37,788 nt of DNA from a virus (taxonomy: Duplodnaviria; Caudoviricetes), in IMG/VR virus record IMGVR_UViG_3300020045_000475, positions 1 through 37,788 of that record, one strand, 5' to 3'. A program made the translations under genes and the position numbers. A model generated the notes under the pieces. The model was not told the origin of the DNA and ran no database searches. It saw only the letters and a program-made list of their open reading frames with translations. The stretch's first letter is position 1; the number at the start of each line of letters is the position of its first letter. Of this stretch, positions 264-33,310 are shown in pieces.

Positions 264-349
264 ATAACAGGATAGGTTGGCCGACCGACAAGTGAGTTCC
301 CTCGCTCATTTCCTTGTTATTTATCGAGGTTTATTTATTAGGGAAAATA
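264..349 (+). ncRNA. Structured leader copy 1 (three-way junction plus pseudoknot) upstream of endonuclease
   Basis: P1 ataacagga(264-272)/tccttgttat(311-320); UA; hairpin ggt-tggccg-acc; GACAA; hairpin gtgag-ttccctcg-ctcat; loop cctcg complementary to cgagg(325-329) and ttccct to agggaa(340-345, SD). Confidence 0.7.
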
Positions 350-1624
350 ATGGAAAAAGATACAGTCGTTAAACGCGACAAACTAAAGAATAGAAACGAT
401 ATTGAACTTCAAAGTATTCGTGATGAACAAATTGGTTTCTTTATCAAACGACAGAAACATACAAATGAGACTCTAAAGGCAACTGCAGACGATACCACAT
501 TTACTGTACTTGGGGATGGTGCCGGTATTGAGTGTGGAAATAGGTCAATGTTACTTTGCAAGTGCAATGTCTGCGGGTTCCTAAGCAATAATGCAATGCA
601 CTATCTGAGGAATAAATCAGTGTCGTGTTATAAGTGCTTCATGAATAGACTTGAAGGTGAAGCTACTTTGATGGGTCTTGAACTGATTGGCGCTGGAACC
701 TCCGGAACTCAACGTAGACAATATCGTTTCAATTCTTGTGGACACGTTCGTGATATTTCAACAGGAGATGTTCGCGCAGGACATGTCTCTTGTACAGAGT
801 GTACCGAAAATAAATTAAAAGATGCTTGTGACTTATCTGGATTTAAGCTGCTTGGTAGTAATGGTCAATACAGATTAGTTTCATTTGGTTGCTGTGGCTC
901 TGAGCGTGAAGTACTAAGAACACATCTACTTGATGGTAATGTTAAGTGTAGAGTTTGTCACTCTGATGAGGTTGCAATTACTGCAAAAGCTAAAGGGTTA
1001 ACCGTTGTTGAAATTCTACCAAAAACATTCAGAAAGTGCATCGTAGATGCATGTGGTCACGAAATTATTATTGGGTTGTCAAATCTTCGAAGTGGTAATT
1101 TTGAGTGCAAAACATGCTTTAATGCAAAAATGCAAAGAGAAGCGAAAGCTGCTGGTTTAGTTTACGTTAAGAAATCAGTAGGCAGGAAGCATGAGTATCT
1201 CGCGCCTTGTGGACATTCTTTACTTAATAAACCAGCACATATACGAATGGGTCATTGGACTTGTCAAGAATGTGAAAAAGGTTATTTACACTTCCCGAAT
1301 AAGTTATACCTATTTAAAATAAAGCATAAAGACTTCACTTGGTTGAAGTTCGGATATAGCAAAACACCAGAATACAGGAAGTATGACTATAAGTTAATTG
1401 AAGGTTGTGAGACTCAGCTATTAATGAGTGTAGAAGTTCCGACTGGAGCTATTGCCGTACTATTAGAGAATTCTATACATGCTACCTACTCTAACTATAA
1501 CTACTCTAAAGTAAAAATGAAAGAGTACATGACTGAATCTGGATTTACAGAGTGTTATCCTATAGAGATAGAACATAAGCTATTATCTGAGCTAAATAAA
1601 ATAAAGGAACAATATGGCAGTTGA
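350..1624 (+). CDS. Free-standing homing-endonuclease-like protein: tandem Cys/His zinc-ribbon repeats plus C-terminal GIY-YIG (T5orf172-like) nuclease
   Basis: About five repeats of CGH/C..C...CxxC; C-terminal LYLFKI..WLKFGYSK..R...E...GFTECY; ATG 350 has SD (agggaa), preferred over TTG 314; stop overlaps terL start. Confidence 0.75.
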   Translation: MEKDTVVKRDKLKNRNDIELQSIRDEQIGFFIKRQKHTNETLKATADDTTFTVLGDGAGIECGNRSMLLCKCNVCGFLSNNAMHYLRNKSVSCYKCFMNRLEGEATLMGLELIGAGTSGTQRRQYRFNSCGHVRDISTGDVRAGHVSCTECTENKLKDACDLSGFKLLGSNGQYRLVSFGCCGSEREVLRTHLLDGNVKCRVCHSDEVAITAKAKGLTVVEILPKTFRKCIVDACGHEIIIGLSNLRSGNFECKTCFNAKMQREAKAAGLVYVKKSVGRKHEYLAPCGHSLLNKPAHIRMGHWTCQECEKGYLHFPNKLYLFKIKHKDFTWLKFGYSKTPEYRKYDYKLIEGCETQLLMSVEVPTGAIAVLLENSIHATYSNYNYSKVKMKEYMTESGFTECYPIEIEHKLLSELNKIKEQYGS

Positions 1625-1712
1625 GAAATTCACACTAGCTCCAGCATCAGTACCGCAGGAGCAGTTCCTAAAAAGTGAGAGTACAATAACTTTGTACTCA
1701 GGATCAGCGGGT
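1614..1712 (+). CDS. terL: Terminase large subunit exon 1 (MAVEKFTLAPASVPQEQFLKSESTITLYSGSAG)
   Basis: SD aagga then ATG 1614; 33 codons with Q motif (PQEQFL) and first half of Walker A; next codon TAA is the intron start. Confidence 0.9.
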
Positions 1713-1971
1713 TAACTTAGCCCCTTTATGGAGTAATCCATATAGCAAACCATGTGAATTCGGTGAAACTCTTAATAAGACAATACCGAGCGAAGCCCAG
1801 AAATGGGAACGTGTAACGACTATCCCCGGCAGGGGAGTAGGGGCAAGTGCTCCGAAGTACATGGGTTCCAGTAATGGAATATGAGATAGTCTTTTCTTAT
1901 AGGTGACTATAAGCAGTTATTGTAGTAAGCAATGACGGGTAGATAAATCACGCAATCTACTGAAAATCAAG
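1713..1971 (+). ncRNA. Group I self-splicing intron (IA2-like), ORF-less, 259 nt
   Basis: Exon ends in U pairing with G of IGS gccc; terminal G at 1971; P2 tatgga-GTAA-tccata; P3 ccatgt(1750-55)/acatgg(1859-64); P7 gactat(1818-23)/atagtc(1886-91); P7.1 tcccc-ggca-gggga and P7.2 ggggc-aagt-gctcc; P8 ttcca-GTAA-tggaa; P9 cttatag-GTGA-ctataag; removal restores frame. Confidence 0.92.
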
Positions 1972-3375
1972 GCCGGTAAAACTTTTGCAATTATTATTAA
2001 TCTAGTTAAGTTCGCAATGCGTAAGAATACTACTGCGGTAGTCTTTCGTAGGACAAGTACACAACTAAGGCAAAACGGGGGTATTTGGCAAGAGGCTACA
2101 ACAGTCTTTAAACAAATGTTTGGTAAGGATGTTATTATTCGCAGTAGGGACTTAGAAATCTATGTTCCATCTACGAATTCAACAATTAAATTCTCACATT
2201 TACAACACCTATCTGATATTAATAATCATTTAGGCGCACAATATTCACTTGTAATTTTTGACGAGGCAACTTTGTTTCCATTTGAGGAAATGATACTTCC
2301 TTTGATGGGACGAATGCGTAACGCGAATGTAGACTATAAGCCACAAATGATGTGGGCAACTAACCCTGCCTATAATCATGGAATCTACCACTGGATTAAG
2401 GATTTTTACCTTGATGAAAATGGAATCCCGTTCGAGGATAAATCCAATATTGAGCGCTTCTTTATACTTCAAAATAACAAACCATTATGGTATGATACTA
2501 GAGAAGAAGCAGAAGCTATTCATGGTAGTGGTTTAGAAACTCCAGTTCAGAGCTTTAGAAGTATTCGCGCACACATTAGCCAAAATATCCCGCTTCTCAA
2601 GGCTAATCCCGGATACATAACTAACTTGAAATCCTTGCCTGACATCAAGCGTAGGATTTTCTTGGATGGCTCTTGGACAGCACGAGAGGAAGAAGCAGGT
2701 TACTTTAATAGAGCATTCTGTAAAGTTGTCCCTTATCCCAATGTGCTTGCAACTCGCAGAGTACGAGCTTGGGATTTAGCCGCAACAAAACCCTCGACTG
2801 CCTCACCTGATCCAGATTGGACACGAGGTACGTTAGTAAGTAAAGATAAGAACAGTCTCTACACTGTGGAGGACATTCAGAGTATCCGAGAAAGACCTCA
2901 TGAAGTTGAGAAGCTAATTTATGCAACAGCGTTAGATGACCCTCCGGGAACTGTCCAGTGTATCGCATGTGATCCGGGCTCTGCTGGGATAGCTTACTCT
3001 AATACTATTAAAGTCAGATTAGCGGAACTCGGTGTCTCTTGTAGGATTGTGAAATCTAACAAGTCTAAACTACTTAGATTTTTACCATTCTCCGCATTAG
3101 CAGAAGCAGGTGTTGTTCAGTTCGTCAAATCCGAGTGGCTTGAAGAAGCATTTGAAGAACTAGAGAACTTCAATGGAGCTAAGAACAACGGAAAGGATGA
3201 TATTTGCGATACCTTATCGGATGCAATATATGTTCTTAACCAAGGTGGTGCAGAACTACCCCAATTTACCCTCCCGGACCTACACCAGTCCAACAACTAT
3301 TCCAACCTCGGATTTTCCCAACCTGATTTACCCATCGGTGACGCGCCAAGGATTATCCAAGGAGAATTTCAATGA
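1972..3375 (+). CDS. terL: Terminase large subunit exon 2
   Basis: Begins GCC GGT AAA ACT (AGKT), in frame with ATG 2017; Walker B VIFDEA, ATNP motif, nuclease motifs RAWDLA and KDDICD. Confidence 0.95.
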   Translation, partial: AGKTFAIIINLVKFAMRKNTTAVVFRRTSTQLRQNGGIWQEATTVFKQMFGKDVIIRSRDLEIYVPSTNSTIKFSHLQHLSDINNHLGAQYSLVIFDEATLFPFEEMILPLMGRMRNANVDYKPQMMWATNPAYNHGIYHWIKDFYLDENGIPFEDKSNIERFFILQNNKPLWYDTREEAEAIHGSGLETPVQSFRSIRAHISQNIPLLKANPGYITNLKSLPDIKRRIFLDGSWTAREEEAGYFNRAFCKVVPYPNVLATRRVRAWDLAATKPSTASPDPDWTRGTLVSKDKNSLYTVEDIQSIRERPHEVEKLIYATALDDPPGTVQCIACDPGSAGIAYSNTIKVRLAELGVSCRIVKSNKSKLLRFLPFSALAEAGVVQFVKSEWLEEAFEELENFNGAKNNGKDDICDTLSDAIYVLNQGGAELPQFTLPDLHQSNNYSNLGFSQPDLPIGDAPRIIQGEFQ

Positions 3376-3457
3376 GAATTGAAATCTTGGTGAGTTTCAG
3401 TAAACCGAGGTTAATCAGTTAATGATACACAAGATAAACACAAGGAGTGCCTAATTA

Positions 3458-4936
3458 ATGACTGCACGTAAAACAAAAGAAACTATTACAAAAGCAACAC
3501 AAGATACTCCTGACCGTTTTCGCTTAGGTGAAATGGGTAGTTTAGGCTTGAGTACATTTGGAGGCGTATCCACGGAAGAGTTAAAAAGAGAGCTTAACTG
3601 GCCAAACAATATTAAAATCTACAAACAGATGACGTACAGTCCATCAGTGAATTCTTCATTGACACTGTACGAGAATATCATTGGTAAAGTCGAATGGAGC
3701 TACGTACCACCACAGAATGCTACACCAGAAGAAATCAACCAAGCCAAAATCATCAATGAAATGATGAAGGACCTAGACGGTAGTACTTGGCGTGAATTCA
3801 TCAATGACATTCTATCAATGATGGTATATGGCTTCAGTATTCACGAAAAGGTCTATCGCCGTAGATACAAGAGTAATGGCTCTCGTTATGATGATGGTGT
3901 TATTGGCTGGAAGAAACTAGCGATTCGTAACCAAGAGACTATTGAGAAGTTCATCTTCTCGGATGATGGCTCGGATGTACTTGGTGTAAAGCAGAATCTA
4001 TCAGCGATCAACGACAGCTACGGTAGGTATACAGCGCGTGGTTCACAAGAGGTTGTGCTACCTAGGAGCAAGTTCTTGCTGTTCCGTACAGGTAAGCACA
4101 AGGGTAATCCATTTGGTGTAAGTCATCTACGTGATGCTTATAGTTCTTGGAAGTACCTGACTGCGATTGAAGAGATGGAAGTCGTTGGGTTCTCTAAGGA
4201 CTTAGCCGGTCTTCCAGTGCTCCGCATTCCGCCTCAGTATATGTCAGAGGATGCTAGTACCTCACAAAAATCCGTGTATGAATACTACAAGAATGTAATT
4301 CGGAACCTACAGCAGAATCAACAGTCCGGTGTTATCTTGCCTCAAGCATTCGATCCTGAGACAAAGCAACCACTGTTTGATCTGAAGCTCCTCAGTAATG
4401 AAGGTGGAAAGAAATCCTTCGATTCAGACAAGATCAAGGACTACTACAAACGAGCGATCTACGTTGCTTTATTTGCTGAAGTACTTATCTTTGGTTCATC
4501 CGAGGGTGGTAGCTTCAACCTAGGTGTAATCAAGAATTCAATGACTGGTGCTGCTGCGGAATCAATGCTGAAGAATATTAAGGATGTTCTCAACAATGAT
4601 CTACTCGTTCAGACTTTTGAGTTAAATGGGTGGAATACTGCAAGGCTAGGCTCGTTTGATTTTGATGGCGTAGATAATACCGATCTGGAAAGTTTAAGCA
4701 AGTCAATACAGAGATATAGTTCCACAGGTATGTTAGAACGTGACCGTGAAGTAATGAACGTAGTACGTATGAGTATCGGTGTTGATCCACTTCCTGATGA
4801 TATGCCCGTACAAGAAGATAAACTCACAGGTAATACCTCCCGTAGCGGAGATGGTTTAGCTACAATGGGTGAAGGTACGAGTAATTCTATATCTGGTGAA
4901 GATACTTCATCAAATAATCTAGAAAACGCGAGCTAA
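3458..4936 (+). CDS. Portal protein (DUF935/Mu gp29-like)
   Basis: 492 aa after terL; motifs YGFSIHEKVY, GNPFGVSHLR, GLPVLRIP; SD aaggag. Confidence 0.9.
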   Translation: MTARKTKETITKATQDTPDRFRLGEMGSLGLSTFGGVSTEELKRELNWPNNIKIYKQMTYSPSVNSSLTLYENIIGKVEWSYVPPQNATPEEINQAKIINEMMKDLDGSTWREFINDILSMMVYGFSIHEKVYRRRYKSNGSRYDDGVIGWKKLAIRNQETIEKFIFSDDGSDVLGVKQNLSAINDSYGRYTARGSQEVVLPRSKFLLFRTGKHKGNPFGVSHLRDAYSSWKYLTAIEEMEVVGFSKDLAGLPVLRIPPQYMSEDASTSQKSVYEYYKNVIRNLQQNQQSGVILPQAFDPETKQPLFDLKLLSNEGGKKSFDSDKIKDYYKRAIYVALFAEVLIFGSSEGGSFNLGVIKNSMTGAAAESMLKNIKDVLNNDLLVQTFELNGWNTARLGSFDFDGVDNTDLESLSKSIQRYSSTGMLERDREVMNVVRMSIGVDPLPDDMPVQEDKLTGNTSRSGDGLATMGEGTSNSISGEDTSSNNLENAS

Positions 4937-4985
4937 ACGATATTAATAATACCCTAATTACTCAGGGTTAACTAAGAAAGAAACT

Positions 4986-6677
4986 ATGGCAACAAAGATA
5001 GTAAAAGAAATTGTTACTGATGTAGGTGGCAACGTAAGTGTAGAATACAGTGATGACTCAACGGCTAAGTTCAATATAGCTGATACAGTAACTGCAGTTA
5101 CTAACCCCCTCACCGGGGGGATTGATTTAACTGCCGGTGGTGCGCCTGTTGTAGTAGGCGGTGGAACTAAAGTTTGGCGCGGTATGGGGCAGGGCATGTC
5201 TGTGGACATTCAGGGATACAGCGGAGGGGCGGCGTACTCAATGACGCACCGCACGCGGCATTACAGTAGCGTTAAGTTCCGGCGTGCTCGTGCTGTGTTG
5301 CAATGCTTTCACACTATGGGCGTACCTCTTGTGGATACGCTTTTTACCAATGACTACAACTTTCAGGTAGGCTTTGAGTTGGGTTACACCAACGCCACAA
5401 CTGGCTTGCTTCCGCGCAAGATGTTCAAATTTTCAAGCAGCGACACGGCCCAGTATCGGCAGGCGCTACCTCCTGCGAACGGTTACATCGTCAGTGATGT
5501 GCTTGATCTCGGGCGCGACGTTGCTCCGCAGGAATTTTTTGGCCTGTGGACAACGGTTGAAGAGGCAACGGCAGGAACGCCAGTTGCGGGCCGCATCCCG
5601 TACACCCGATCAACCAGCAACTTTTTGCAGCGGTATGTTGGCACCGTATCGGCCAATGGGTTGACGCTTGCGCAATCGCAAATTGCGTTGAATACCGCAG
5701 CGGTAGCAACTAGCATTACTTCAGCCACGGCTTCTCAAGGTGGTGGCAGCAACTATTTCACGCCCGTAATGCTTTTGATCGAAACTGATTCATCTCTGCC
5801 ATTTATCGTTCACCTGTCAGATTCAATCGGCTACGGTGTGGGTGAGAGTGTGCCCGGCAGCGGCACCGAAGGCGACGGCATAGGCTCTGCCCTGAGTAAC
5901 CGTGGATTCATTGATCGAGCAATTTACGAGAACCTTGGCTACTCAAGCGTCAATCTGGGCCGGGGATCGGATGGCAACAAATACCTATCTACTCCGTCAA
6001 ATTGGCCTTATCGCCGCTCACTTTTGGCGCTTGCAAACCCAACGCACGTCATCAACGCAAACATTCACAACGATCCCGGCTCTGTAACTGTGGCAGGCTG
6101 GGCTACTGCAACTTCTTTTGCCAAGTGGGACTGCAAGACTGCGAATGGCAACGTCTATGTGTGTGTTGTTTCCGGTACGTCTTCAGCCGTTGCAGGCGGG
6201 CCTACTGGCACCGGCGGTGGGATCATTGACGGGACTTGTGTGTGGGCGTATTTGATGCCGTACCCGGCGCTTTCTACGGCTCGCAGTGCAAGTATTATGC
6301 TGGCGCAAATGGCAGCGGTTAACTCTCAGATCAAAGAGGTCTTGCCAAACGCCCCCATTATCGTAATGACAGGGACGCCGGATGCGGCATCTACAGACGC
6401 ATGGCGTACCCCCGAAAATCAAACTGTTGCGATTGGCTGGGGCGATTCAACGTCACGAAGAAATCTGGTAAATGAGCAAATCAAGGCCAAAAACCCATTG
6501 CTGCAAATCTCTGAATTTTTTGACCCATCCTCTGTTCTGGAAGACGGCTACCCAACGGTCACGGGTAAATGGGTGAGTAACGGAAGCGCCTCGTATGTGA
6601 CCAATGATGGAACCCACCCTAACAGTGTTGGCTACAAGATTGGGGCGGCCACTCTGACTGCTGACAAGTTTATCTAA
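4986..6677 (+). CDS. Virion-associated SGNH/GDSL-like esterase with inserted carbohydrate-binding-like module
   Basis: Blocks LSDSI (I), NLGRGS (II), NIHND (III), DGTHPN (V); WATATSFAKW...GNVYVC insert resembles CBM5/12; GC-rich after ~5110. Confidence 0.65.
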   Translation: MATKIVKEIVTDVGGNVSVEYSDDSTAKFNIADTVTAVTNPLTGGIDLTAGGAPVVVGGGTKVWRGMGQGMSVDIQGYSGGAAYSMTHRTRHYSSVKFRRARAVLQCFHTMGVPLVDTLFTNDYNFQVGFELGYTNATTGLLPRKMFKFSSSDTAQYRQALPPANGYIVSDVLDLGRDVAPQEFFGLWTTVEEATAGTPVAGRIPYTRSTSNFLQRYVGTVSANGLTLAQSQIALNTAAVATSITSATASQGGGSNYFTPVMLLIETDSSLPFIVHLSDSIGYGVGESVPGSGTEGDGIGSALSNRGFIDRAIYENLGYSSVNLGRGSDGNKYLSTPSNWPYRRSLLALANPTHVINANIHNDPGSVTVAGWATATSFAKWDCKTANGNVYVCVVSGTSSAVAGGPTGTGGGIIDGTCVWAYLMPYPALSTARSASIMLAQMAAVNSQIKEVLPNAPIIVMTGTPDAASTDAWRTPENQTVAIGWGDSTSRRNLVNEQIKAKNPLLQISEFFDPSSVLEDGYPTVTGKWVSNGSASYVTNDGTHPNSVGYKIGAATLTADKFI

Positions 6678-6763
6678 TCCCCTCATCACGAAGATAACAA
6701 CACAAGGTCAACTCACATAACCCGAGTTGGTCTTCCCTGAAGCTAACATAATGGACAATTAAC

Positions 6764-7030
6764 ATGAAATCAAATTGCGTATTCTGGGCTTTACCTAAGT
6801 TCTTACAAAGAGCTAAACCCGGAGAAGAAACATATCTCATTTTCCGCAGGTCCAGAATCGCATGGGGTTTCTTCCATTGTCTTCTGGGGAGACTAAATCC
6901 ACTCACTGGTGAAATCCAAGTAGAAAGCTACAAACCACCAGCAGGTCACAAGAAGACTAAACCAGCCCCTGTATTTGAAGGTGTAGTAATCAAGGGTGAC
7001 GCGGATACTTCTCATGGTGACTTATCGTGA
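6764..7030 (+). CDS. Hypothetical protein
   Basis: 88 aa ORF with SD-like gga, fills gap in operon. Confidence 0.6.
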   Translation: MKSNCVFWALPKFLQRAKPGEETYLIFRRSRIAWGFFHCLLGRLNPLTGEIQVESYKPPAGHKKTKPAPVFEGVVIKGDADTSHGDLS

Positions 7031-7055
7031 GCCTTTATGTTACGTGCCACATTCT

Positions 7056-7376
7056 ATGACACTTTATAACTACAAAATAATCATTACTCATTGGATTGAC
7101 GGTGACACATTCGATGCTATAGTTGATCTTGGGTTTAACGTAATGAGTAAAATCCGCTTTCGTCTTTTGGATATAGATACTCCAGAGCGCGGAGAGATTA
7201 ACTACAGAGAAGCACAGAGTTGTTCTGCTGGTGTATATCCAGTTGGTACTGAGGTTCAAATCTTGAGTATCAAGGGTAGAGCTACTGATAAGTACGGACG
7301 TTGGCTTGTGCATCTACCAAAGGTCAACGAGGAATTAATCCTGAAGCAATTAACTAAAATAAAAGCAAGCAAATAA
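7056..7376 (+). CDS. Thermonuclease (staphylococcal nuclease-like)
   Basis: IDGDTF..VDLGF, RFRLLDIDTPE, DKYGRWL; ATG 7056 avoids overlap with previous gene. Confidence 0.85.
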   Translation: MTLYNYKIIITHWIDGDTFDAIVDLGFNVMSKIRFRLLDIDTPERGEINYREAQSCSAGVYPVGTEVQILSIKGRATDKYGRWLVHLPKVNEELILKQLTKIKASK

Positions 7377-7388
7377 ATAGGAGCATCT

Positions 7389-8897
7389 ATGCCTTGGGGA
7401 ATCCTGAAAGATCAAACTTTACCAGCATTGAAGGATGCTTCACTAGAAGAACGTAAAGCATTTGCTAAAGTAGCCAACGCTGCATTGCTCAAAGGCGAAT
7501 CCGAGAAGGATGCTATTGTTGCTGGGTTGGCTGCAGCTAAGAATGCCAAGGATGTACAGAAGGCTAAACTTCCTAAACATCTACAGGTTATCCTTGATAT
7601 TGTGGATAGTGCCCGGAATACACCATTGGTTGAACCACAGGAGCCCCAGCAGGACGCACCAGAACGCTCTGTAAGCTCTTCTAGCTGGTTCAGTAGTACC
7701 ATTCATACACCAGAGGCTATTAACGCAACTGAGGACGTTTTAAAGGCTTCTATGAGTCAAGGACGTAACCTCATTGGCGCTAACTTCGATACTAAAGGTG
7801 CATTGATTCTTAGGTTCGATAACGGAGATACCATCAGGACTAACGAACAAGTCCTCAAGGAGTACATCGAGCAGTACGTTACAGTAGCTACTACTCCGTT
7901 CTTTGATTGGATTAAGTTCAATACTGAAGCGAACGTACCAAACGAAGATTTCACTTCAGGTATGATGCGCTGGAATGCCTTTGATGGTACTCTGGATTTA
8001 CGCATGGGTGACAACGCTACATTGCAACTAGGAATGGAGATGTACTGTCCACCCCTCTTGAATAATACAGGTGTTACTATCCCGGAAGGTTCTGTTGTGT
8101 ATACCACTGGTGGCGATATGTCAACATCAAGGATTACCTTTGGTCTAGCCACAGCAGCACCTGACTTTGATAGCTTCCGTGTACTTGGCATTACAACTGA
8201 GGATGTAGCCAATGGTGAAGTTGGTTTTATTACTAACTTTGGATTAGTACGTACATTGAATACCACAGGGACTCCTTATGGTGAAGTGTGGTCATCAGGA
8301 GATGTACTTTACGTATCTCACCTCGTAGCTGGTAGGTTAAGTAATATTAAACCAACAGCACCTTACGAGAGTATCCCTATTGCTATCGTTGGTATCGTAG
8401 ATGCAACTGCAGGTACTATCTTCGTTAAACCAAGTCCAGTATCTAGGCTGGATTATGCATCGTTCTACGATACCACTACCCAAGTACAAACTGCAACAGA
8501 AACACCAAGTGCTATCACTCTGAACACCACAAGAGAAGCCTATGGTATCTCTGTGAATAATCAATCAAGAGTAACCGTGAGTAGAGCAGGGTTATACGAG
8601 TTCCAGTTCACTATGCAGGTATCTAAGAGCAATTCAAACGCTCAGAACATGTGGGTGTGGGCTAGGATTAACGGAGCGGACGTACCAGCATCAGCGAATA
8701 AACTCAGCGTACAAGGCTCAAGCACATTGCTCGTACCTAGCTGGAGTTTTCAAGAGGCGATGAATGCGAATGATTACTTTGAGTTAATGTGGGCTGTAGA
8801 CAGCACAACTATTACTCTTGTAGCACCACCAAGTACACTGTTTTGCCCTAGTACTCCAAGTGCTACTTTGACTGTAGCTCAAGTTAATATCAGCTAA
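7389..8897 (+). CDS. Multi-domain virion protein (ChaB-like N-terminus; head-fibre-like middle; C1q/BclA-like beta-sandwich C-terminus)
   Basis: MPW...KAFAKVANAALLKGESEKDAI N-terminus; GITTEDVANGEVGFITNFGLV; VTVSRAGLYEFQFTMQV...ANDYFELMW. Confidence 0.55.
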   Translation: MPWGILKDQTLPALKDASLEERKAFAKVANAALLKGESEKDAIVAGLAAAKNAKDVQKAKLPKHLQVILDIVDSARNTPLVEPQEPQQDAPERSVSSSSWFSSTIHTPEAINATEDVLKASMSQGRNLIGANFDTKGALILRFDNGDTIRTNEQVLKEYIEQYVTVATTPFFDWIKFNTEANVPNEDFTSGMMRWNAFDGTLDLRMGDNATLQLGMEMYCPPLLNNTGVTIPEGSVVYTTGGDMSTSRITFGLATAAPDFDSFRVLGITTEDVANGEVGFITNFGLVRTLNTTGTPYGEVWSSGDVLYVSHLVAGRLSNIKPTAPYESIPIAIVGIVDATAGTIFVKPSPVSRLDYASFYDTTTQVQTATETPSAITLNTTREAYGISVNNQSRVTVSRAGLYEFQFTMQVSKSNSNAQNMWVWARINGADVPASANKLSVQGSSTLLVPSWSFQEAMNANDYFELMWAVDSTTITLVAPPSTLFCPSTPSATLTVAQVNIS

Positions 8898-8908
8898 CCT
8901 TCACTCAC

Positions 8909-8937
8909 TTGACTTGGTTATACCAGAATGTTATAGT
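8909..8937 (+). promoter_or_regulatory. Sigma70-type promoter
   Basis: TTGACT-17 nt-TATAGT with extended -10 TG. Confidence 0.7.
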
Positions 8938-8977
8938 GAACGCTACAAATACACAATACGAATAACGTAAGGATATT

Positions 8978-9622
8978 ATGCCAGCAGCTAATTATGATTT
9001 AGATATTGAACAAGGTGTACCTTACGAACGTGTACTATTCCTGAAGGATGCTCAAGGTGCTATCTTGAATCTAACAGGCTACTCCGCGCGTATGCAAGTA
9101 CGTCCTTACGTATCCTCTAGTGAAGTCCTCGTTGAATTAACCTCAGCTAATACAGGTCTTGTACTTGATCCAGTGCTGGGTTCTTATATTGTACGTGGTA
9201 GTCTCAGCAGTGAAGCGCAGTTGGATTATACGGTAAGAGCAGAGGTTAATTCCGAGGGAACTCTGAGCTATACCATCCGTGCATCCTTGAGTAAAGACCA
9301 AGGGTTAATGTACGATATATTGGCTGCTAATAACGTATCTTCTAGCTCAGGTGGATCGTACATTATCCAAGCGACTACAGCAAATAATACTTCTTGTTCT
9401 TATCAGATTCAAGGTGAGATTATTGACGTACCGTTGACTAATGCAGAGATGCAGCAGTTATACGCTTGGGTTAGCGAGCTAGTTACTAAGAGTGCAACCA
9501 AGGAAGAGATTGCGACTGCAGTGTGGAGTAAACCCACAAGTGAGCTAACAGTAGAGAATTCTATTGGTAAATGGTTAATGCAGAAGGTGTTAACTGTTAG
9601 TAAGTTCTTAGCGTTGAAGTAA
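8978..9622 (+). CDS. Virion structural protein (beta-sandwich N-terminus plus ~14-aa repeats)
   Basis: YDLDIEQG...NLTGYSARMQVR is typical of phage tail-associated beta-sandwich domains; then SYIVR/DYTVR/SYTIR/MYDIL/SYIIQ/SYQIQ periodicity. Confidence 0.55.
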   Translation: MPAANYDLDIEQGVPYERVLFLKDAQGAILNLTGYSARMQVRPYVSSSEVLVELTSANTGLVLDPVLGSYIVRGSLSSEAQLDYTVRAEVNSEGTLSYTIRASLSKDQGLMYDILAANNVSSSSGGSYIIQATTANNTSCSYQIQGEIIDVPLTNAEMQQLYAWVSELVTKSATKEEIATAVWSKPTSELTVENSIGKWLMQKVLTVSKFLALK

Positions 9623-9696
9623 ACGCATACGCAGGTTTCATTAAGTTGAGCCTGCGTATACCGCATGTTGCTTACTTGCTAGCTCATTTCATTCAC

Positions 9697-9725
9697 TTGA
9701 CATAAACCCAGCACAATGCTATCAT
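9697..9725 (+). promoter_or_regulatory. Sigma70-type promoter
   Basis: TTGACA-17 nt-TATCAT with extended -10 TG. Confidence 0.75.
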
Positions 9726-9788
9726 ATTAGCTAATTGGATTACGTGGGATTACTCCTGCGTAACTTCCTACAGAATATAAGGAGTACA

Positions 9789-10181
9789 GTGGATACTAAA
9801 GATACAAAATCAAAAGTAGTACCAGTTACTAAAGCACTTAATGAAGAGTTAATGCAGGTTACTTACGTGGCAATGAAGCCCGGTGTTGATTTACATTATC
9901 ACTCAGTTGATCTAGAAGAAATCCGGTTAGCTAAAGAGTCATTTAACAAGAGTTTAATGCGGGCTAATCTTTTCCACATGACTATGACTGAGAGCTTCAG
10001 CATAATTGAGTCGTACTTGGCACCTACCGACATAGTATTGAATAAACAGTTAGTCACTAAGGGCGAGTGGTTGGTTACTCTTCAGATTCATAAAGGTCAT
10101 GAAGAAGTTTGGGAAATGATTAAGAACGATGAGATTACAGGTGTATCCATTGGAGCTATGGGTATTCTCGAAGACGTTTAA
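9789..10181 (+). CDS. XkdF-like putative prohead serine protease
   Basis: ANLFH, IIESYLAP, KGEWLV, VWEMIKNDEITGVSIGA; GTG 9789 follows SD aaggag. Confidence 0.8.
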   Translation: MDTKDTKSKVVPVTKALNEELMQVTYVAMKPGVDLHYHSVDLEEIRLAKESFNKSLMRANLFHMTMTESFSIIESYLAPTDIVLNKQLVTKGEWLVTLQIHKGHEEVWEMIKNDEITGVSIGAMGILEDV

Positions 10182-10188
10182 AGTATTT

Positions 10189-10270
10189 AGCACGGCTACC
10201 TCGACGGAGGGAAAAGATGATTCATCCACATCCTGCCATTGCTTTTCGGATGCATTCTTGATGAGGAATT
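10189..10270 (+). ncRNA. Structured leader copy 2 (three-way junction plus pseudoknot)
   Basis: P1 agcacggc/gccattgct; UA; cctc-gacg-gagg; GAAAA; gatg-attcatcca-catc; CU; loop catcc complementary to ggatg(10248-52) and tcatc to gatga(10260-64, SD region). Confidence 0.7.
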
Positions 10271-11116
10271 ATGAACAATATATACTATGTGTATCTACAT
10301 AGGCGTGCGACAGATAATAAAGTTTTCTACGTTGGAAAAGGTAAAGACAAAAGATCTCACAGCACCTTCGGTAGAAACGAGCACTGGCAGAAAACAGAAG
10401 CTAAACACGGATTGGTTGTTGAGATTGTATTCGATAATCTAGAAGAGGAAGAAGCCTTTCAAGTAGAAAAGGACACAATTTTAGAGTTCAAGTATTTTGA
10501 TCATCCTCTTTGTAATATGACAAACGGTGGTGAGGGTCTTTCTGGCTTTAAGTGGTCAGAAGAACAAATGAAGAATCACCCAAGTAAGAATAACATAGGT
10601 CGAAAACATACTCCAGAGTCAAAAGCCAAAAGAAGTAAGTCGCTCATGGGACATGTTACAAGTGAAGAAACTAAACAAAAGATAAGTAAAGCACATCAAG
10701 GTACTGCAGTATTTGCTTTTATTGTTAAAACATTAACTAATAAGTTACTTATAACACACAAAGCACGGGCCGAGATACTTGGTATCAACCCTCGTGAACT
10801 ATATAAAGAGTCTTCATACAAGCCTTACTTTTCTCGCCTAGCTATCATGAAATCTGCTGATATTAGAAGAGGTAAACCTGCTTGGAATTCTGGGAAAAAG
10901 TTACCTGAAAGTTCAGGTACTCTCAATAGTTCTGCAGATAACAGAATATTTAGGTTTGAAAGATTGTCGGATGGTTTGATTTTTGACGGAACAAGATATG
11001 ATTTATGTGATAGTTTCTCATTGAAGTTATGTGAAATTGGAAAATTATTCTATAAGAAAGCAAGAAAAACCAGCCAAGGTTGGAAACTTATAAAGGAATT
11101 AGATGGAACAAGTTAA
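10271..11116 (+). CDS. Free-standing GIY-YIG homing endonuclease with NUMOD3 repeats
   Basis: YYVYLH...FYVGKG..KR...E..LCNMTNGGEG; NUMOD3 GRKHTPESKAKRS and SEETKQKISKA. Confidence 0.85.
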   Translation: MNNIYYVYLHRRATDNKVFYVGKGKDKRSHSTFGRNEHWQKTEAKHGLVVEIVFDNLEEEEAFQVEKDTILEFKYFDHPLCNMTNGGEGLSGFKWSEEQMKNHPSKNNIGRKHTPESKAKRSKSLMGHVTSEETKQKISKAHQGTAVFAFIVKTLTNKLLITHKARAEILGINPRELYKESSYKPYFSRLAIMKSADIRRGKPAWNSGKKLPESSGTLNSSADNRIFRFERLSDGLIFDGTRYDLCDSFSLKLCEIGKLFYKKARKTSQGWKLIKELDGTS

Positions 11117-12215
11117 CAGCAGTGTACCACGAAAGGCACAGAAGAGGCTCAAGTCGATTGACTTCTCGGGTAAAGATTCCCATATGGCCCTAGTACACAC
11201 CGACCAAGGCGGGTGCGCGTCTGGGGCGAATTATAAATTAGTGTTAAAAAATACTGATAAGTTTTCTGACTCTTTTATTGCTAAAGCTAGCAAGATCAAA
11301 GTAGAGATGGACATTAACGAATATCTAGAGCGATTCTATCACATCTACGGTGTTGATAACGAGTTACTTGCTCGTGCTATGGGTTTTACAACCCGTGGTC
11401 AAGACAAGGCTGCTCTGGAGATGAAAGAGCAAGCTATTGAAGATCAGGAAGAACCTGAGTATCCCGATTGGGATTCTAATCCCGGTGATGACAAATATGA
11501 AGCATGGATTAATTCTAAGCTCTCGTCTATGGAAGTAATGAAGGCGCTCTACGAAGCTGACCACATTGCTGAAATACTGTCCGGTCTTAGTGAAACAGAA
11601 TATCTGGTTATGCTCAAAGATCAACTCTTGCTTGAGAAAGCATTTAAGAAAATTGACCGCTTGAGTAAATCGAACAAAGCTACTAACGTAGCAAAAGAAT
11701 CTAAGCCCGTGGTTGAAGCCACAGGTGCAGATACCTCAGTCGCTAGCGAGGTAAACGGGGTATCTAACCCTTTGGTTAAAACTAATACTAACAAGGAACT
11801 AAAAATGACTGTTGAATCAACTGTAGTTGAACAGGAAGTTGAAGTAGTTGCTAAGAGTGCATTCGTTGAACTTGAGAAGAGCCTAGATGCTCAGAAGCAA
11901 GAACTGCAAAAAGCACTTGAGTCAATCGCTCAATTCCAAGAGAAAGAAAAACAAGCAATTGCTAAAGCGCGTAAAGCTGAAGTGCTATCTGCTGTTAAAG
12001 ACGCAGGTAAAGCGGAAGTACTATTCAAAGCTGTAGCTGACGCTTCTAATGAAGATTTCGCTGCTGTGGTTAAAGCACTCGGTGATATGCAAGCACAGGT
12101 TGAGAAATCTGCGTTGTTCGTGGAGCAAGGTGCGAGTGTAGAAACTGAGGTTCAACCTGAAGTGTCTCCGCTGGAACGTATGCTCAAAGCTAAGTTCGCT
12201 CAATCCGCTAAGTAA
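11103..12215 (+). CDS. Head scaffolding protein
   Basis: Between protease and decoration/capsid; acidic, coiled-coil C-terminus. Confidence 0.7.
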   Translation: MEQVNSSVPRKAQKRLKSIDFSGKDSHMALVHTDQGGCASGANYKLVLKNTDKFSDSFIAKASKIKVEMDINEYLERFYHIYGVDNELLARAMGFTTRGQDKAALEMKEQAIEDQEEPEYPDWDSNPGDDKYEAWINSKLSSMEVMKALYEADHIAEILSGLSETEYLVMLKDQLLLEKAFKKIDRLSKSNKATNVAKESKPVVEATGADTSVASEVNGVSNPLVKTNTNKELKMTVESTVVEQEVEVVAKSAFVELEKSLDAQKQELQKALESIAQFQEKEKQAIAKARKAEVLSAVKDAGKAEVLFKAVADASNEDFAAVVKALGDMQAQVEKSALFVEQGASVETEVQPEVSPLERMLKAKFAQSAK

Positions 12216-12231
12216 ATAATAAGGAAATAAC

Positions 12232-12633
12232 ATGCCCGTAATCGCAACTGACACACTGCGTGTCTCAAATCTAGTTAAAAAAGAACAATGGGCCGAGCTT
12301 GGCTATTGCCGCGAAGTAGTTACTGTAAACGAAGCAGTCGCTAAAACTTACGCAGTTGGTACTGTTCTTGGTAAAGTTACTGCTGACGGTAAATATAAAA
12401 TCGCTGTTCAAACTGCTGTTGATGGCTCTGCTGTCGCTGCTGCTCTAGTATTGGAAGATAAAGCAATCGCTGCTACTACCGATACTAAGCTAGTAGTTAT
12501 GGTTAAAGGTCCAGCAAGTATCAGCGTTGGTGGTCTAGTTCTAGACGCATCTTATGACCTTGATGCTGAAAAAGCTGTAGTGTATGCTTCCCTTGAATCC
12601 AAAGGTATTCAAGTTCTAAACAAAGCTGCTTAA
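12232..12633 (+). CDS. Head decoration protein (lambda gpD-like)
   Basis: GTVLGKVTADGKY..DGS..AAALVL; directly before capsid. Confidence 0.85.
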   Translation: MPVIATDTLRVSNLVKKEQWAELGYCREVVTVNEAVAKTYAVGTVLGKVTADGKYKIAVQTAVDGSAVAAALVLEDKAIAATTDTKLVVMVKGPASISVGGLVLDASYDLDAEKAVVYASLESKGIQVLNKAA

Positions 12634-12682
12634 TAAATAATAGAGCCTGAGATTTCGGGCTTATTAAAAGGAAAAATATATA

Positions 12683-13711
12683 ATGGCAATTATTCGCTCA
12701 TACACTAATGCTTTTGAGGTCACGGACTTCACACAAGAGCTGCAGATTATCCCGAATTCATGGACACTTTTGAATGACTCTGGTTTGTTCGCTGAAGAGT
12801 TCTTGAGTACCAGTACTGTTACTTTTGAAGAGCAGGCAAGTACTCTTGGTTTGATCGGTGATCAATATCGCGGCGCTAAACCACAAGCTAACAAAGATGA
12901 TAACCGTAAGATTCGTTCTTACCCTATCGGTCACTTCCCGATTGTTGACGCTGTAAAACCTGAAGATATTCAAGGTAAGCGTGCATACGGTTCTAACGAT
13001 ATGGCAGAAACTGAAGCTGCTGTTATCGCACGTAAAATGGAACGTATCCGTCGCAACATGGATATTACTATGGAAGTGGGTCGTTTTAGTACCTTGACCA
13101 CTGGTAATTTGTACGCACCTAATGGTACTATCTCCGGTAACTTGTTCAGTGATTTTGGTATTACTCAAACTTCAGTTGACTTCGTACTAGGTACAGCTAC
13201 TACTGATATTATTGCTAAAGTCGAGACTGTTATTGCATCTATGCAAGACAATGCCAATACTGGTGATGTTATCTCTGGTGTTGTTGCTTATTGCAGTCCT
13301 GAGTGGTTCGCCAAATTGATCTCTCATGCAAAAGTAGTGGATGCATTCCGTTATTTCACTGCAACTGAAGGTCAGTTGATTCAACGTAACCGCGCAGGTG
13401 GTACTAATGGTCTTTACCGTGAATTCACTTATGGTGGCATTCGCTTTATTGAGGTTCGTACAGTACTTGCAGGTCAACGACTAATCCCTGCTGGTGAAGT
13501 TGTGTTTGTTCCTGTCGGTACTTCTGAAACCTTCGTTAGCTACTTCGCACCTGCTAACCGTATGGATTTCGTTAATACCCGCGCAGAGCGTGGTTATATG
13601 TGGACATATCGTGATCCTAAAGGTCAAGGTATTGACATTGACGGAGAGTTTAACGTCACTCACATTGTACGTAGACCCGCGTTGGTTGTTAAAGGTACTA
13701 CCTCTAACTAA
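12683..13711 (+). CDS. Major capsid protein (lambda gpE-like)
   Basis: 342 aa; LNDSGLF, HFPIVDAVKPEDIQGKR, FTYGGIRFIE, RRPALVVK; strong codon bias. Confidence 0.92.
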   Translation: MAIIRSYTNAFEVTDFTQELQIIPNSWTLLNDSGLFAEEFLSTSTVTFEEQASTLGLIGDQYRGAKPQANKDDNRKIRSYPIGHFPIVDAVKPEDIQGKRAYGSNDMAETEAAVIARKMERIRRNMDITMEVGRFSTLTTGNLYAPNGTISGNLFSDFGITQTSVDFVLGTATTDIIAKVETVIASMQDNANTGDVISGVVAYCSPEWFAKLISHAKVVDAFRYFTATEGQLIQRNRAGGTNGLYREFTYGGIRFIEVRTVLAGQRLIPAGEVVFVPVGTSETFVSYFAPANRMDFVNTRAERGYMWTYRDPKGQGIDIDGEFNVTHIVRRPALVVKGTTSN

Positions 13712-13717
13712 ACGATT

Positions 13718-13778
13718 AACCTCTTAACTGAGGTTTTATATTGGAAGGTGTTCTCACAAGGGGCATCTTCTGATATAA
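13718..13778 (+). terminator. Terminator-like hairpin followed by 19-bp G.U-rich hairpin
   Basis: aacctc-ttaact-gaggtt-tt, then ttatattggaaggtgttct/ggggcatcttctgatataa. Confidence 0.55.
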
Positions 13779-13791
13779 TAGAAGAATTATA

Positions 13792-13870
13792 AAGTAAGCT
13801 AGGCTGATCCCCGAAAAGACGACTATCCACCGTCCTGCTTATTTATTTCAGTGGAATTTCGGGAGAAATA
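13792..13870 (+). ncRNA. Structured leader copy 3 (three-way junction plus pseudoknot)
   Basis: P1 aagtaagc/gcttattt; UA; gg-ctgatcc-cc; GAAAA; gacg-actatccac-cgtc; CU; loop tccac complementary to gtgga(13851-55); cccgaaa complementary to tttcggg(13857-63) overlapping SD. Confidence 0.7.
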
Positions 13871-14893
13871 ATGAGAAAAAATATGTGCGTTTATCTACAC
13901 TTAGATAATGAAGGTATTATTCGATATGTTGGTAGCGGTACAAAAACTCGACCGTACCTTTCATGTAATCGGAATACAGCATGGAATAATCTGTTTAAGA
14001 ACAGTCCACCAAAAGTTGTTATAGTTGATTCCGACCTAGTATATGAGGATGCAATAGCCCTTGAGTATTACATGTATGTGAGTTGTCTTGATAATCTTGT
14101 AAATACAACCGAGCCAAGAATTACAAAGCAACTTGACTTTGAGTATTTTAATGAGTGGTTTTATATTGATAGTAATAGTCCTTCGGGTCTTAGTCTTAAA
14201 AAGAAGTCACCTCAAAATAATACAAATATTGGCGAAAATGTAGGGACAGTTGTTACATGCAATAGTCAAAAGAAGTATTGGAGAATTAAATCAAATAGTT
14301 CTGCGTATCTTGCTCATCGAGTTGTTTATCTATTAGAGCATGGCACTATAGACCCACATTTAGTTATAAACCATATAGATGGAAATGGCCTTAATAATTG
14401 TGTAAGTAACTTAGAACAAGTTACCCAGAAAGTTAACTGCTTTAGGAAGAAAGTGGGATCAAATAATTCAACAGGTTTTGCTGGAATAGCTTATACAAAG
14501 TACAAAGGTTTAGTTGATGGTTATAGTTCAAAGTACGTATCAGATAAACCTTACTCACAACGGTTTAGTTTTATCGCTTATGGTGGTGCAGAAGAAGCCC
14601 TAGCAGCAGCTATACGCTGGAGAAGCTACAAACTGCATATCAATAAGATTGAAGAATTTAAGGGAGACTTTGATGAACTGTATTATCTTGTTTGTCAAGA
14701 CTCAATAAAAAGCCAAATGATACGCGCCAATGCTGCAGCTTATTCAGATAACGGAAAGACTTGGTATTGCAAATTAAAATTACCGAATACTAGATATATT
14801 ACTTGTGGATATTTTAATACACCAGAAGAAGCAATAGTCGCTCGTAACAAAATAGTAGATGATTATCATAGTAAATTGAAATATAACCTCTAA
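13871..14893 (+). CDS. Homing endonuclease: GIY-YIG-like N-terminus, HNH domain, AP2-like C-terminus
   Basis: VYLH..RYVGSG..R; AHRVVY..NHIDGNGLNNCVSNL; STGFAGI; GYFNTPEEAIVARN. Confidence 0.85.
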   Translation: MRKNMCVYLHLDNEGIIRYVGSGTKTRPYLSCNRNTAWNNLFKNSPPKVVIVDSDLVYEDAIALEYYMYVSCLDNLVNTTEPRITKQLDFEYFNEWFYIDSNSPSGLSLKKKSPQNNTNIGENVGTVVTCNSQKKYWRIKSNSSAYLAHRVVYLLEHGTIDPHLVINHIDGNGLNNCVSNLEQVTQKVNCFRKKVGSNNSTGFAGIAYTKYKGLVDGYSSKYVSDKPYSQRFSFIAYGGAEEALAAAIRWRSYKLHINKIEEFKGDFDELYYLVCQDSIKSQMIRANAAAYSDNGKTWYCKLKLPNTRYITCGYFNTPEEAIVARNKIVDDYHSKLKYNL

Positions 14894-18158: not shown

Positions 18159-18196
18159 AACCCCTAGTTCCTTAAATGGTTCTAGGGGTTTTCTTC
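18159..18196. terminator. Bidirectional intrinsic terminator
   Basis: aacccctag...ctaggggtt-ttctt between convergent genes. Confidence 0.75.
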
Positions 18197-19451
18197 ATTG
18201 CGGCTTGAAAGACCAACCTCTATTACTACTTGTCTTACTCCTGAACATAACACCTGTGTCAATTCCAGTTAAGCGTTTAAACTCTGACCTTGTTGTAATC
18301 AAGATTTTATCGTCATCACTTGTAAATACGTACTTATTGTAATCTTTACCTCCGTTTCTTGGGCCAAGAACTTTTGCTATATTCTCAAACAGACACCAGT
18401 CCTTTATGTATAAAGCGTCCTTGTCGGTAAACAGCCAGCTTATCTTTGGAACTATCTTTGACATTTCAACCCTAGTACATTCTATAATTTCTTCGGTTAA
18501 AAGATTGTAGAATTTATAGATTGTCTTAATGTGGTTTGGATTGTTTGTACCAGAGGACTTGTCTACTTTCTTGGTCAGTTGATCATCTGTTAATCTAACT
18601 CTACCATTCAGTATAAATTTCAAATGTTCAGCATCGAATAATTCTAGGACTGTCCACCCATGAGTGGTCTTACTTTTAAATAACTTGTTTTCTCCAAAGA
18701 GGTGTTGAACATCTAGATTGTACTTATCCTTGAACTCAAATCTTGTTCCTTTGAATTCTTCTTTAGTCTTAACATGCACAAATGTGTAAGTGTTCTTGTC
18801 GCTGTTAGGATTATGCTTTCCTTTAAAGTTAGCAAGAATACCTGCAAGTTGATTCTCTGTCATTACATCCACAGCATACCAACCGCGTATTGTATTTACA
18901 CATCCTTTATTAAACAATGAAGCAGCGTTGATACTGTATTTATTTTCAAAATCGAACTTATTACTGAATTCTTCTTCATTTGTTTTATAGTTCTTGAAGT
19001 GGTAAATAGTTAAGTCAGCATTTCCATTCTTCAGTCCTGTATTAGCTTCACTTAATTTCTTACGGGTTTCCTCGCTCACAATTACACCTAACCCTCCATC
19101 ACCTCCATCAGTAAGGTTAGTTAAAGTTCCAAGCCCAAGGTCGCGCCTACCGTAGTAATTTACAAGTGTCTTTTCAAGAAGTTTAGCCTCGTGTGTTAGC
19201 AAACCTTGTGCAACTATCTCTACAACACATCCGTACTTCTTCGCTGTCTTATTCCAGAACTTATTTCTAGTGTCTGATCTGTACCTAGCTCCTTTACCAC
19301 GACCTACGTAGAATACCTCACCATCTGTCTCTTTCTTGTGAATATAGACGTACTCATCCCTTGGAACTGTATCAAAACAGCATGTGATCTTGATGCCGTT
19401 ATTCTCAATAACCCGCTTCCGTATAACTCTGTGATCAATCCTGCGCTTCAT
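18195..19451 (-). CDS. Antisense GIY-YIG homing endonuclease with NUMOD3 and four C-terminal repeats
   Basis: YVYIH..FYVGRGKGAR..E..LTNLTDGGDGG; SEETRKKLSEA; four G.xN..Y.F...TR.EF..LF...W repeats; ATG 19451 has SD aaggag. Confidence 0.85.
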   Translation of the reverse strand: MKRRIDHRVIRKRVIENNGIKITCCFDTVPRDEYVYIHKKETDGEVFYVGRGKGARYRSDTRNKFWNKTAKKYGCVVEIVAQGLLTHEAKLLEKTLVNYYGRRDLGLGTLTNLTDGGDGGLGVIVSEETRKKLSEANTGLKNGNADLTIYHFKNYKTNEEEFSNKFDFENKYSINAASLFNKGCVNTIRGWYAVDVMTENQLAGILANFKGKHNPNSDKNTYTFVHVKTKEEFKGTRFEFKDKYNLDVQHLFGENKLFKSKTTHGWTVLELFDAEHLKFILNGRVRLTDDQLTKKVDKSSGTNNPNHIKTIYKFYNLLTEEIIECTRVEMSKIVPKISWLFTDKDALYIKDWCLFENIAKVLGPRNGGKDYNKYVFTSDDDKILITTRSEFKRLTGIDTGVMFRSKTSSNRGWSFKPQ

Positions 19452-19500
19452 GTCTCTCCTTATTAGTTCATGGCTAATTCTACCACAGATCAACAGAACC

Positions 19501-19529
19501 TTGACAAAATAAACCCCCAATGGTAAACT
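19501..19529 (+). promoter_or_regulatory. Sigma70-type promoter for tail chaperones, back-to-back with an extended -10 (TGG TAGAAT) on the - strand
   Basis: TTGACA-17 nt-TAAACT; attcta-cca at ~19477-19485. Confidence 0.7.
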
Positions 19530-32207: not shown

Positions 32208-32260
32208 AAAAACGCCCGTAGCGCCTTGGTATTAACCTTGGTACTACGGGCGTTTTTTTT
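32208..32260. terminator. Bidirectional intrinsic terminator at module convergence
   Basis: aaaaacgcccgtag...ctacgggcgtttttttt. Confidence 0.9.
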
Positions 32261-33260: not shown

Positions 33261-33267
33261 AATAAAT

Positions 33268-33304
33268 AAAAAGGATTACCTAGAGTTAACCAGATAATCC
33301 CTCC
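33268..33304 (-). terminator. Intrinsic terminator after nrdA
   Basis: On - strand ggagggattatctgg...taggtaatcc-ttttt. Confidence 0.6.
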
Positions 33305-33310
33305 TTTAGT

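Follow-up and report, generated by a model that had tools for sequence, protein, structure and literature searches.

Variants of the int-alpA RNA before three phage nuclease genes: a probable two-state lock on translation and a self-complementary loop, from sequence comparison

The int-alpA RNA (RF02996) is a catalogued orphan of the Rfam database, where its type is given as 'Gene; sRNA' (small RNA). It reportedly originates from the 2017 survey of Weinberg et al., and its gene neighbourhood is, as we take from the family name, integrase and alpA. The word 'alpA' is absent from the main text of PMC5737381 and int-alpA from that of PMC10690425; a literature search did not find 'RF02996', int-alpA appeared elsewhere, in the parts of the sources that were available, only as a table row and in gene order, and no published function was found among open-licence papers. 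The supplement of the 2017 survey may already show the first of the pseudoknot pairings described below. Here we analysed the virus record IMGVR_UViG_3300020045_000475, a whole record of 37,788 nucleotides that is about 46% complete and is called the window in the following. Three of its five nuclease-type genes, those on the plus strand, are each preceded by a variant of this orphan RNA (copies 1 to 3). The comparison of these copies with their relatives argues strongly for a putative two-state lock on translation and for pairing of the RNA with itself.

Hairpins that sequester the ribosome-binding site are described for the T4 genes of I-TevI, I-TevII, I-TevIII and segB and for mobE of Aeh1 in the available part of PMC2988022. 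The window elements may resemble these systems in that a predicted hairpin, P4, lies over the ribosome-binding site of a homing endonuclease gene. The T4 hairpin is stable and is escaped through a late promoter inside it (PMC2988022, same part), whereas the window hairpin is weak (−0.4 to −2.6 kcal/mol) and a separate three-way junction supplies a loop that could lock it. No promoter starting inside P4 was found; the promoter-like sites map as consensus matches upstream of P1, the closing stem of the junction. A second likeness is to IsrK of Gifsy-1 and to the CI RNA of the satellite phage P4, leader-derived RNAs that act on their own transcript and tune toxic or replication genes, as far as the consulted part of PMC4825925 describes them. 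Their fold is not shared and the window elements have no Rfam match to either; CI terminates, IsrK activates, and a palindromic loop is described for neither in that part of the source. The third likeness is to the retroviral dimer-initiation loops with palindromes of 2-6 bases on short stems, where a review, in the portion available, ties the change between monomer and dimer to translation (PMC7357161, PMC516450). Those loops are eukaryotic genome packaging signals unrelated in sequence, and the comparison is an analogy only. For a leader of the kind described here, or for autoregulation by messenger RNA dimers in phages, only general reviews turned up among open-licence papers.

The Rfam scan gave int-alpA as the sole family match at all three places, with E values of 0.0017, 0.015 and 0.12 for copies 1 to 3. 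Their scores (Table 1) are below the RF02996 gathering cut-off of 35.8 bits, copies on related contigs reach 37.0 and 35.8 bits, and the cut-off is passed by 16 of 20 pattern-found loci that were picked for variety from 86. The window copies have the three stems of int-alpA and its conserved UA, GAAAA-like and CU junction strands, and copies 1 and 3 align over the full length of the model; copy 1 is a widespread variant. On this comparison the window copies are divergent variants of int-alpA and not formal members, and the proposal of an undescribed family, made in a sequence-only reading of the window, is not supported. The Rfam model as printed stops at a site here called A, leaves the tail unpaired and has neither the second site, B, nor P4. 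What the alignments add to it are two partners of the P3 loop, which high-scoring bacterial members of the family also show, a self-complementary P2 loop and, in roughly every second element, a predicted weak hairpin P4 that covers the ribosome-binding site. A further difference lies in the genes that follow: the window copies sit before nucleases and not in an integrase/alpA neighbourhood, and the viral sample has mostly replication proteins.

The junction with its P3-loop pseudoknot had been described in the sequence-only reading, and all three segments do pair in this way; P4 and the self-complementarity of the P2 loop had been missed. A descriptor derived post hoc from the three copies themselves found exactly these three in the window and none in 200 dinucleotide shuffles, both strands being searched. 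With filters off, a covariance model that had the three copies in its training set found no fourth copy in the window (next best 10.3 bits versus 38-52). Energy folding with flanks gave weak support, with z scores of −0.68, −0.14 and 0.08 for copies 1 to 3, and in copies 1 and 3 the junction differs from the minimum-energy fold. In an alignment of 39 sequences, 87.6% of the cells were paired and 180 double-sided changes were counted versus 65 in shuffles; none of 500 shuffles matched this and all slid controls were also exceeded. The fold was accepted because covariation, not energy folding, supports the junction, and the earlier statement that stems and pseudoknot co-vary was thus confirmed, for the pseudoknot by the permutations reported below.

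In copy 1 (287-311) the junction has a 3' side that is one base shorter, as is also the case in L003, L157, L406 and L476-L595 among the relatives. In this variant the third base of the A-rich strand was changed in 41 and 11 of 60, versus 8 unchanged, in a scan whose pattern permitted this change and was therefore not a free test of it. The changed base hints at a tertiary contact. In copy 3 an alternative pairing of 13810-13816 with 13857-13863 had been noticed earlier; its 7 pairs are present, but relatives at the same site (L431, L444, L453, L437) do not keep them, and this pairing was rejected for lack of covariation.

Table 1. Coordinates of the RNA elements, associated signals and nuclease genes in the window
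Feature	Position	Strand	Evidence or remark
Copy 1, three-way junction	265..319	+	Rfam int-alpA 34.1 bits; covariance model; pairing check
Copy 1, P1	265-271/313-319
Copy 1, P2	275-278/283-286
Copy 1, P2 loop	279-282		4-base palindrome
Copy 1, junction strand	287-291
Copy 1, P3	292-296/305-309
Copy 1, P3 loop	297-304
Copy 1, site A	325..329	+	5 pairs with P3-loop bases 300-304
Copy 1, P4	331..350	+	marginal, −0.4 kcal/mol; holds site B
Copy 1, site B	340-345		at ribosome-binding site; 6 pairs with P3 loop
Copy 2, three-way junction	10189..10243	+	Rfam int-alpA 30.4 bits; covariance model; pairing check
Copy 2, P1	10194-10196/10235-10237 and 10189-10192/10240-10243
Copy 2, P2	10199-10202/10207-10210
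Copy 2, P2 loop	10203-10206		GACG tetraloop
Copy 2, P3	10216-10219/10229-10232
Copy 2, P3 loop	10220-10228
Copy 2, site A	10248..10252	+	5 pairs with P3-loop bases 10223-10227
Copy 2, P4	10254..10269	+	6 pairs, −2.6 kcal/mol; over ribosome-binding site
Copy 2, site B	10260-10265		in loop and 3' arm of P4
Copy 3, three-way junction	13792..13844	+	Rfam int-alpA 27.0 bits; covariance model; pairing check
Copy 3, P1	13792-13799/13837-13844
Copy 3, P2			2 pairs only
Copy 3, P2 loop	13804-13810		4-base palindrome 13806-13809
Copy 3, P3	13818-13821/13831-13834
Copy 3, P3 loop	13822-13830
Copy 3, site A	13851..13855	+	5 pairs with P3-loop bases 13826-13830
Copy 3, P4	13856..13869	+	5 pairs, −2.2 kcal/mol; over ribosome-binding site
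Copy 3, site B	13862-13867		imperfect
Terminator-like hairpin	13718..13735	+	after major capsid gene
Sigma-70-like promoter, extended −10 (copy 3)	13751..13779	+	within long inverted repeat
Nuclease gene 1, putative homing endonuclease	350..1624	+	PHROG 681 'endonuclease', E 4.6e-13
Nuclease gene 2, GIY-YIG/NUMOD3 homing endonuclease	10271..11116	+	NUMOD3; sub-cut-off GIY-YIG match
Nuclease gene 3, HNH/AP2 homing endonuclease	13871..14893	+	HNH_3; weak AP2

Relatives were collected with a gene-blind pattern scan of IMG/VR, where 121 loci were examined and 86 gave folded matches, and with a second scan for the copy 1 junction variant, which gave at least 62 distinct folds in 120 loci (the second sample). 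The matching stretches in IMG/VR are estimated at about 4,000 for the first and about 1,400 for the second scan. A short pattern applied to bacterial genomes met mostly chance matches (4 of 120 loci fold). Members over the cut-off were present in 11 of 151 bacterial genomes; several are located downstream of long integrase-like frames, as judged by eye, and others precede integrases. Limnohabitans phage DC31 had no match to the element, and Curvibacter phage P26059A has copies at 11845 and 14575. The downstream products of at least 40 residues (n = 80) comprised 38 replication proteins (initiator, primosomal, primase and DnaD-like) and 18 nucleases; an antirepressor and a tail chaperone were among 4 products assigned elsewhere, and the remaining 20 had no match. 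In the second sample, 16 of 60 partial products matched nuclease-type Pfam families and 37 matched nothing. The idea of a module specific for nucleases was rejected on the downstream genes of both samples. Among the relatives of the second nuclease (GIY-YIG), the element was found upstream at 7 of 79 and 16 of 66 loci, together at least 23 of 145, a lower bound as are all carrier counts, since L430 and L470 contain, by eye, another variant that escapes the model R1. An operator for the cognate nuclease, also considered earlier, is unlikely because unrelated genes share the fold. In many replication-gene copies (L175, L205, L218, L229, L263 and kin) the element is followed by the initiator and preceded by a short gene whose end looks Cro-like by eye, the position where lambdoid phages keep decision elements.

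The pairing of the P3 loop with the tail was tested with 56 distinct P3 loops from 83 elements, 74 of which had tails of 24-55 bases. At least 5 pairs with the own tail were possible in 48 of the 56, in the near half and in the far half alike, whereas non-cognate tails allowed this in 25% (near half) and 40% (far half). The mean pairing of each half was reached by none of 10,000 permutations. In the second sample, where fixed windows were used instead of tail halves, the numbers were 49 and 39 of 53, again with 0 of 10,000 permutations each. In nearly all elements, site A begins 13-18 bases past the junction, and its helix directly abuts the P3 stem. The loop bases that pair with site B are largely those used by site A, displaced by 1-2, and the end of site B lies 1-11 bases upstream of the start codon. 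Since the two sites share most of these bases, they are mutually exclusive. We conclude from the covariation that the P3 loop has two overlapping partners, of which site B is positioned at the ribosome-binding site.

The hairpin P4 was analysed in 115 parsed elements, 106 of them with both sites, representing 82 distinct loops. A hairpin of at least 4 pairs that starts within 4 bases of site A and holds site B in its loop was present in 44 of the 82, versus 22 with a shuffled arm (maximum 32) and 15 with a swapped arm (maximum 24). The second sample gave 25 of 44 versus 9.6 and 7.7, respectively. In 37 of 39 cases the Shine-Dalgarno-like match was covered by site B or by the 3' arm of P4. The P4 stem of copy 2 is retained with changes in L002 and L003.

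The loop of P2 was then compared with that of P3. A palindrome of at least 4 bases occurred in 17 of 28 distinct P2 loops versus 10.2 in shuffles, 26 of 5000 of which reached 17, and in 8 of 92 P3 loops; the second sample had 22 of 28 P2 loops versus 11.7 (0 of 5000). Of the seven-base P2 loops on three-pair stems, 23 are distinct, and in each of them the two central bases are self-complementary; four kinds of this central pair occur. A 4-base palindrome is present in 22 and a 6-base palindrome in 14, the latter representing 11 different hexamers, and the neighbouring register gives no palindromes. The outermost pair of such a loop could extend the stem instead. Adjacent central bases cannot pair inside one hairpin; the simplest partner is therefore another molecule, and the loop suggests that two copies of the RNA pair with each other. 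A DNA-binding site was considered for the palindromes; the 11 different hexamers argue against one protein. GACG tetraloops, as found in copy 2, form kissing homodimers of two pairs in retroviral RNA, according to the available parts of PMC7357161 and PMC516450. The P2 loops differ between copies of one genome in the window and in several relatives, with counter-examples in L174/L480, G007 and G039.

Whether the element moves with the nuclease was analysed at 43 capsid loci, of which 5 were too short to judge and some are near duplicates. After the major capsid gene, the element was present in 25 of 30 filled alleles and in none of 8 empty alleles; the remaining 5 inserts are preceded by another type of leader, for which Rfam gave no match. 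Among 33 relatives at the protease-scaffold site, 27 had no room for the element, 2 had the element and a nuclease, and 4 had a nuclease without it. One contig joins 10175 to 11158 across 73 other letters and represents the empty allele of a close relative. These alleles indicate that the element travels with the nuclease insert. Of the earlier proposal of a portable leader that limits nuclease translation in a late operon, the portability is hereby supported, and the throttling is likely.

Several side observations were made at these sites. In L461:5596-5860 the element precedes an apparent remnant of a deleted nuclease with a 337-base gap, a leader outlasting its gene. The GIY-YIG genes of L445, L448, L449 and L450 and the one at 8661 of P26059A overlap or abut the upstream stop codon and have no leader, which is a second strategy at the protease-scaffold site. 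The alternative leader of roughly 120 bases (L428:4425-4560, L434, L446, L458, L464), located after the capsid gene and before other inserts, has a closing stem with an inner hairpin, whose loop contains a 4-base palindrome, followed by a second hairpin; by eye, the loop of the latter matches, and changes with, a loop at the ribosome-binding site. With no Rfam match it is a candidate new motif.

The transcription context was examined for promoter-like sites, counted as consensus matches only. Of 81 elements, 26 had such a site at a distance of 8-22 bases upstream of the junction; no other bin held more than 4, and at control stops the count was 19 of 609. They were present in 11 of the 45 elements near an upstream stop codon and in 15 of the 36 far from one. 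The second sample had 17 of 62, again with at most 4 in other bins. In the window, copy 3 has such a site (Table 1), copy 2 only a −10-like hexamer upstream and copy 1 nothing clear; copies 1 and 2 may be read from the operon transcript. A similar −10 is present in some empty alleles, so the promoter of copy 3 is likely part of the phage locus. It is spanned by a long inverted repeat at 13736-13779 (19 pairs, segment z −5.5), and relatives keep a similar repeat of different sequence in filled and empty alleles alike; the repeat may be a late-promoter structure or an operator.

The exclusive sites, the hairpin and the palindromic loop can be joined in one mechanism. Site A, transcribed first, would capture the P3 loop, and P4 would then be weak enough for the 30S subunit to open it (ON). 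With a rising transcript level, two leaders would dock via their P2 loops, after which a P3 loop would shift to site B and lock the ribosome-binding site (OFF). The docking partner could be a second full messenger RNA or a short RNA ending before site A. A protein whose excess does harm would in this way be made only in a capped or short burst. No regulator protein would be needed, and unrelated genes could therefore borrow the leader. From the alignments, the leader probably acts as a translational throttle. To the whole chain, with self-pairing as the trigger and OFF as the result, we assign a probability of about 45%; the five alternative leaders with a loop matching the loop at the ribosome-binding site were counted in its favour. 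More tentatively, int-alpA might in general be a protein-free self-counting regulator, a leader that senses its own copy number by P2 dimerisation and locks the ribosome-binding site with swappable loop addresses. If this is true, it would serve phages and islands as a limit on the amounts of replication initiators, nucleases, antirepressors and integrases, and perhaps as a gauge of genome copy number or of the multiplicity of infection. A switch driven by self-pairing, if this is how it works, would amount to negative feedback by messenger RNA dimerisation, which was not found described for bacteria or phages in open-licence papers, and would provide a small programmable part for synthetic biology. 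Such a feedback would be relevant to the dosing of replication proteins in phages and to their tolerance of homing endonucleases, and the comparison yields a testable mechanism with the exact bases to change.

A number of observations weigh against this self-pairing lock. We saw no structural reason why docking of P2 should move the P3 loop, and the direction could differ, as the short isoform of IsrK activates its own long messenger RNA (PMC4825925, in the part consulted). The stronger helix was site A in 31 of the 56 loops and site B in 19, so OFF is not an obvious ground state. Site B is imperfect in several relatives, has only 4 contiguous pairs in many replication-gene copies, and in copy 3 pairs at 4 of 6 positions. 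No P4 was recognised for 38 of the 82 and 19 of the 44 loops, and that of copy 1 is marginal. In some P2 loops the palindrome is limited to a CG or GC step, and a few are plain GNRA loops. At the protease-scaffold site, 4 of 6 filled alleles have a nuclease without any element, which is therefore not required there; taken with the weak site B of copy 3, these four cases mean that the proposed lock is not uniform and can be dispensed with. The sequences are related, so that the counts are not independent events, and kinship inflates those of the P2 palindromes.

Other explanations were weighed with the same data. A purely cis-acting switch or folding timer would use site A first, allow a few initiations and then move to site B, with P2 serving for folding or for another partner. 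The order of the sites, their mutual exclusion and P4 need no second molecule, and in 43 of 81 elements an upstream stop codon lies at a distance of 10-26 bases from the junction, so that an upstream ribosome could also reset the fold. We nevertheless regard this timer as rather unlikely, as it leaves the 23 of 23 self-complementary P2 loop centres of four kinds unexplained and the stronger helix is usually not site B. The sign could also be reversed, the lone RNA being OFF through kissing of the P3 loop with P4 and a second copy turning it ON. Loop-loop helices can exceed the stability suggested by duplex energies, and the P2 palindromes would be accounted for, with IsrK as a precedent (PMC4825925, available part). 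A positive feedback, however, would be ill-suited to nucleases in a strong late operon, and with the weak site B of copy 3 a tight OFF state of the lone RNA is doubtful, which makes the reversed sign unlikely.

A host protein or small ligand that binds the fixed junction bases and sets the balance of A and B, as an operator or riboswitch, is less probable still. The junction bases are near invariant, though the scans selected for them, and fixed bases also fit a structural A-rich junction; the downstream genes share no metabolite or protein family, and the P2 palindromes would remain unexplained. An attenuator or small-RNA gene, where P1 and a U-run terminate and the short RNA acts on other targets, agrees with the Rfam type and with promoter-like sites just upstream. 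At least 5 U in the 8 bases after P1 were found in 30 of 82 elements but in only 13 of 62 of the second sample, and a role as a general terminator was rejected on these counts. Since the loop co-varies with its own downstream sites, this reading is very improbable, although a short RNA form, if made, could still serve as the docking partner in the self-pairing lock. The least probable, by a further step, is a self-cleaving ribozyme, or a knot that stops exonucleases, by which a new 5' end would be created or shielded; a ribozyme or processing site had also been suggested earlier. A three-way junction with a loop-to-tail pseudoknot does resemble the flaviviral exonuclease-resistant RNA (xrRNA) and the A-rich strand that of hammerheads. 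The Rfam scan, however, gave no match to a ribozyme family with E values of up to 5 allowed, the hammerhead core strand is absent by inspection, and neither structure needs a second site at the ribosome-binding site; nothing points to a ribozyme.

The three plus-strand nuclease genes lie in the late operon of the window, whose major capsid protein is closest to those of the annotated Limnohabitans phage DC31 (52%) and Curvibacter phage P26059A (50%). Different architectures had been assigned earlier to the three plus-strand nucleases. This was confirmed for NUMOD3, HNH_3 and a weak AP2, whereas gene 1 had no Pfam match and its zinc-ribbon and GIY-YIG labels are motifs seen by eye, as is a GIY-YIG-like motif at the N-terminus of gene 3. 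Gene 2 is located between the head protease gene and a likely scaffold gene. For gene 3, downstream of the major capsid gene, no direct relatives were found among viral contigs. The two minus-strand nucleases lack the element, as had been stated and as the covariance model, with its three hits, bears out. The HNH nuclease at 32259-33260 runs in the same direction as nrdA and is antisense to late genes only. A terminator-like hairpin of 16 pairs is present between the two (33261-33305, minus), and the start codon of the nuclease follows about 10 bases past it, with no evident ribosome-binding site. The other one, GIY-YIG-like and antisense to tail genes, is at 18195-19520 (minus) with a likely start at 19451. 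Gene 1 is flanked upstream by the likely small terminase subunit gene, inferred from its position, and downstream by terL, the terminase large subunit gene. The end of gene 1 is just upstream of exon 1 of terL, which is interrupted by a group I intron at 1703-1913 (Rfam RF00028, 67.1 bits) that is also found in L007.

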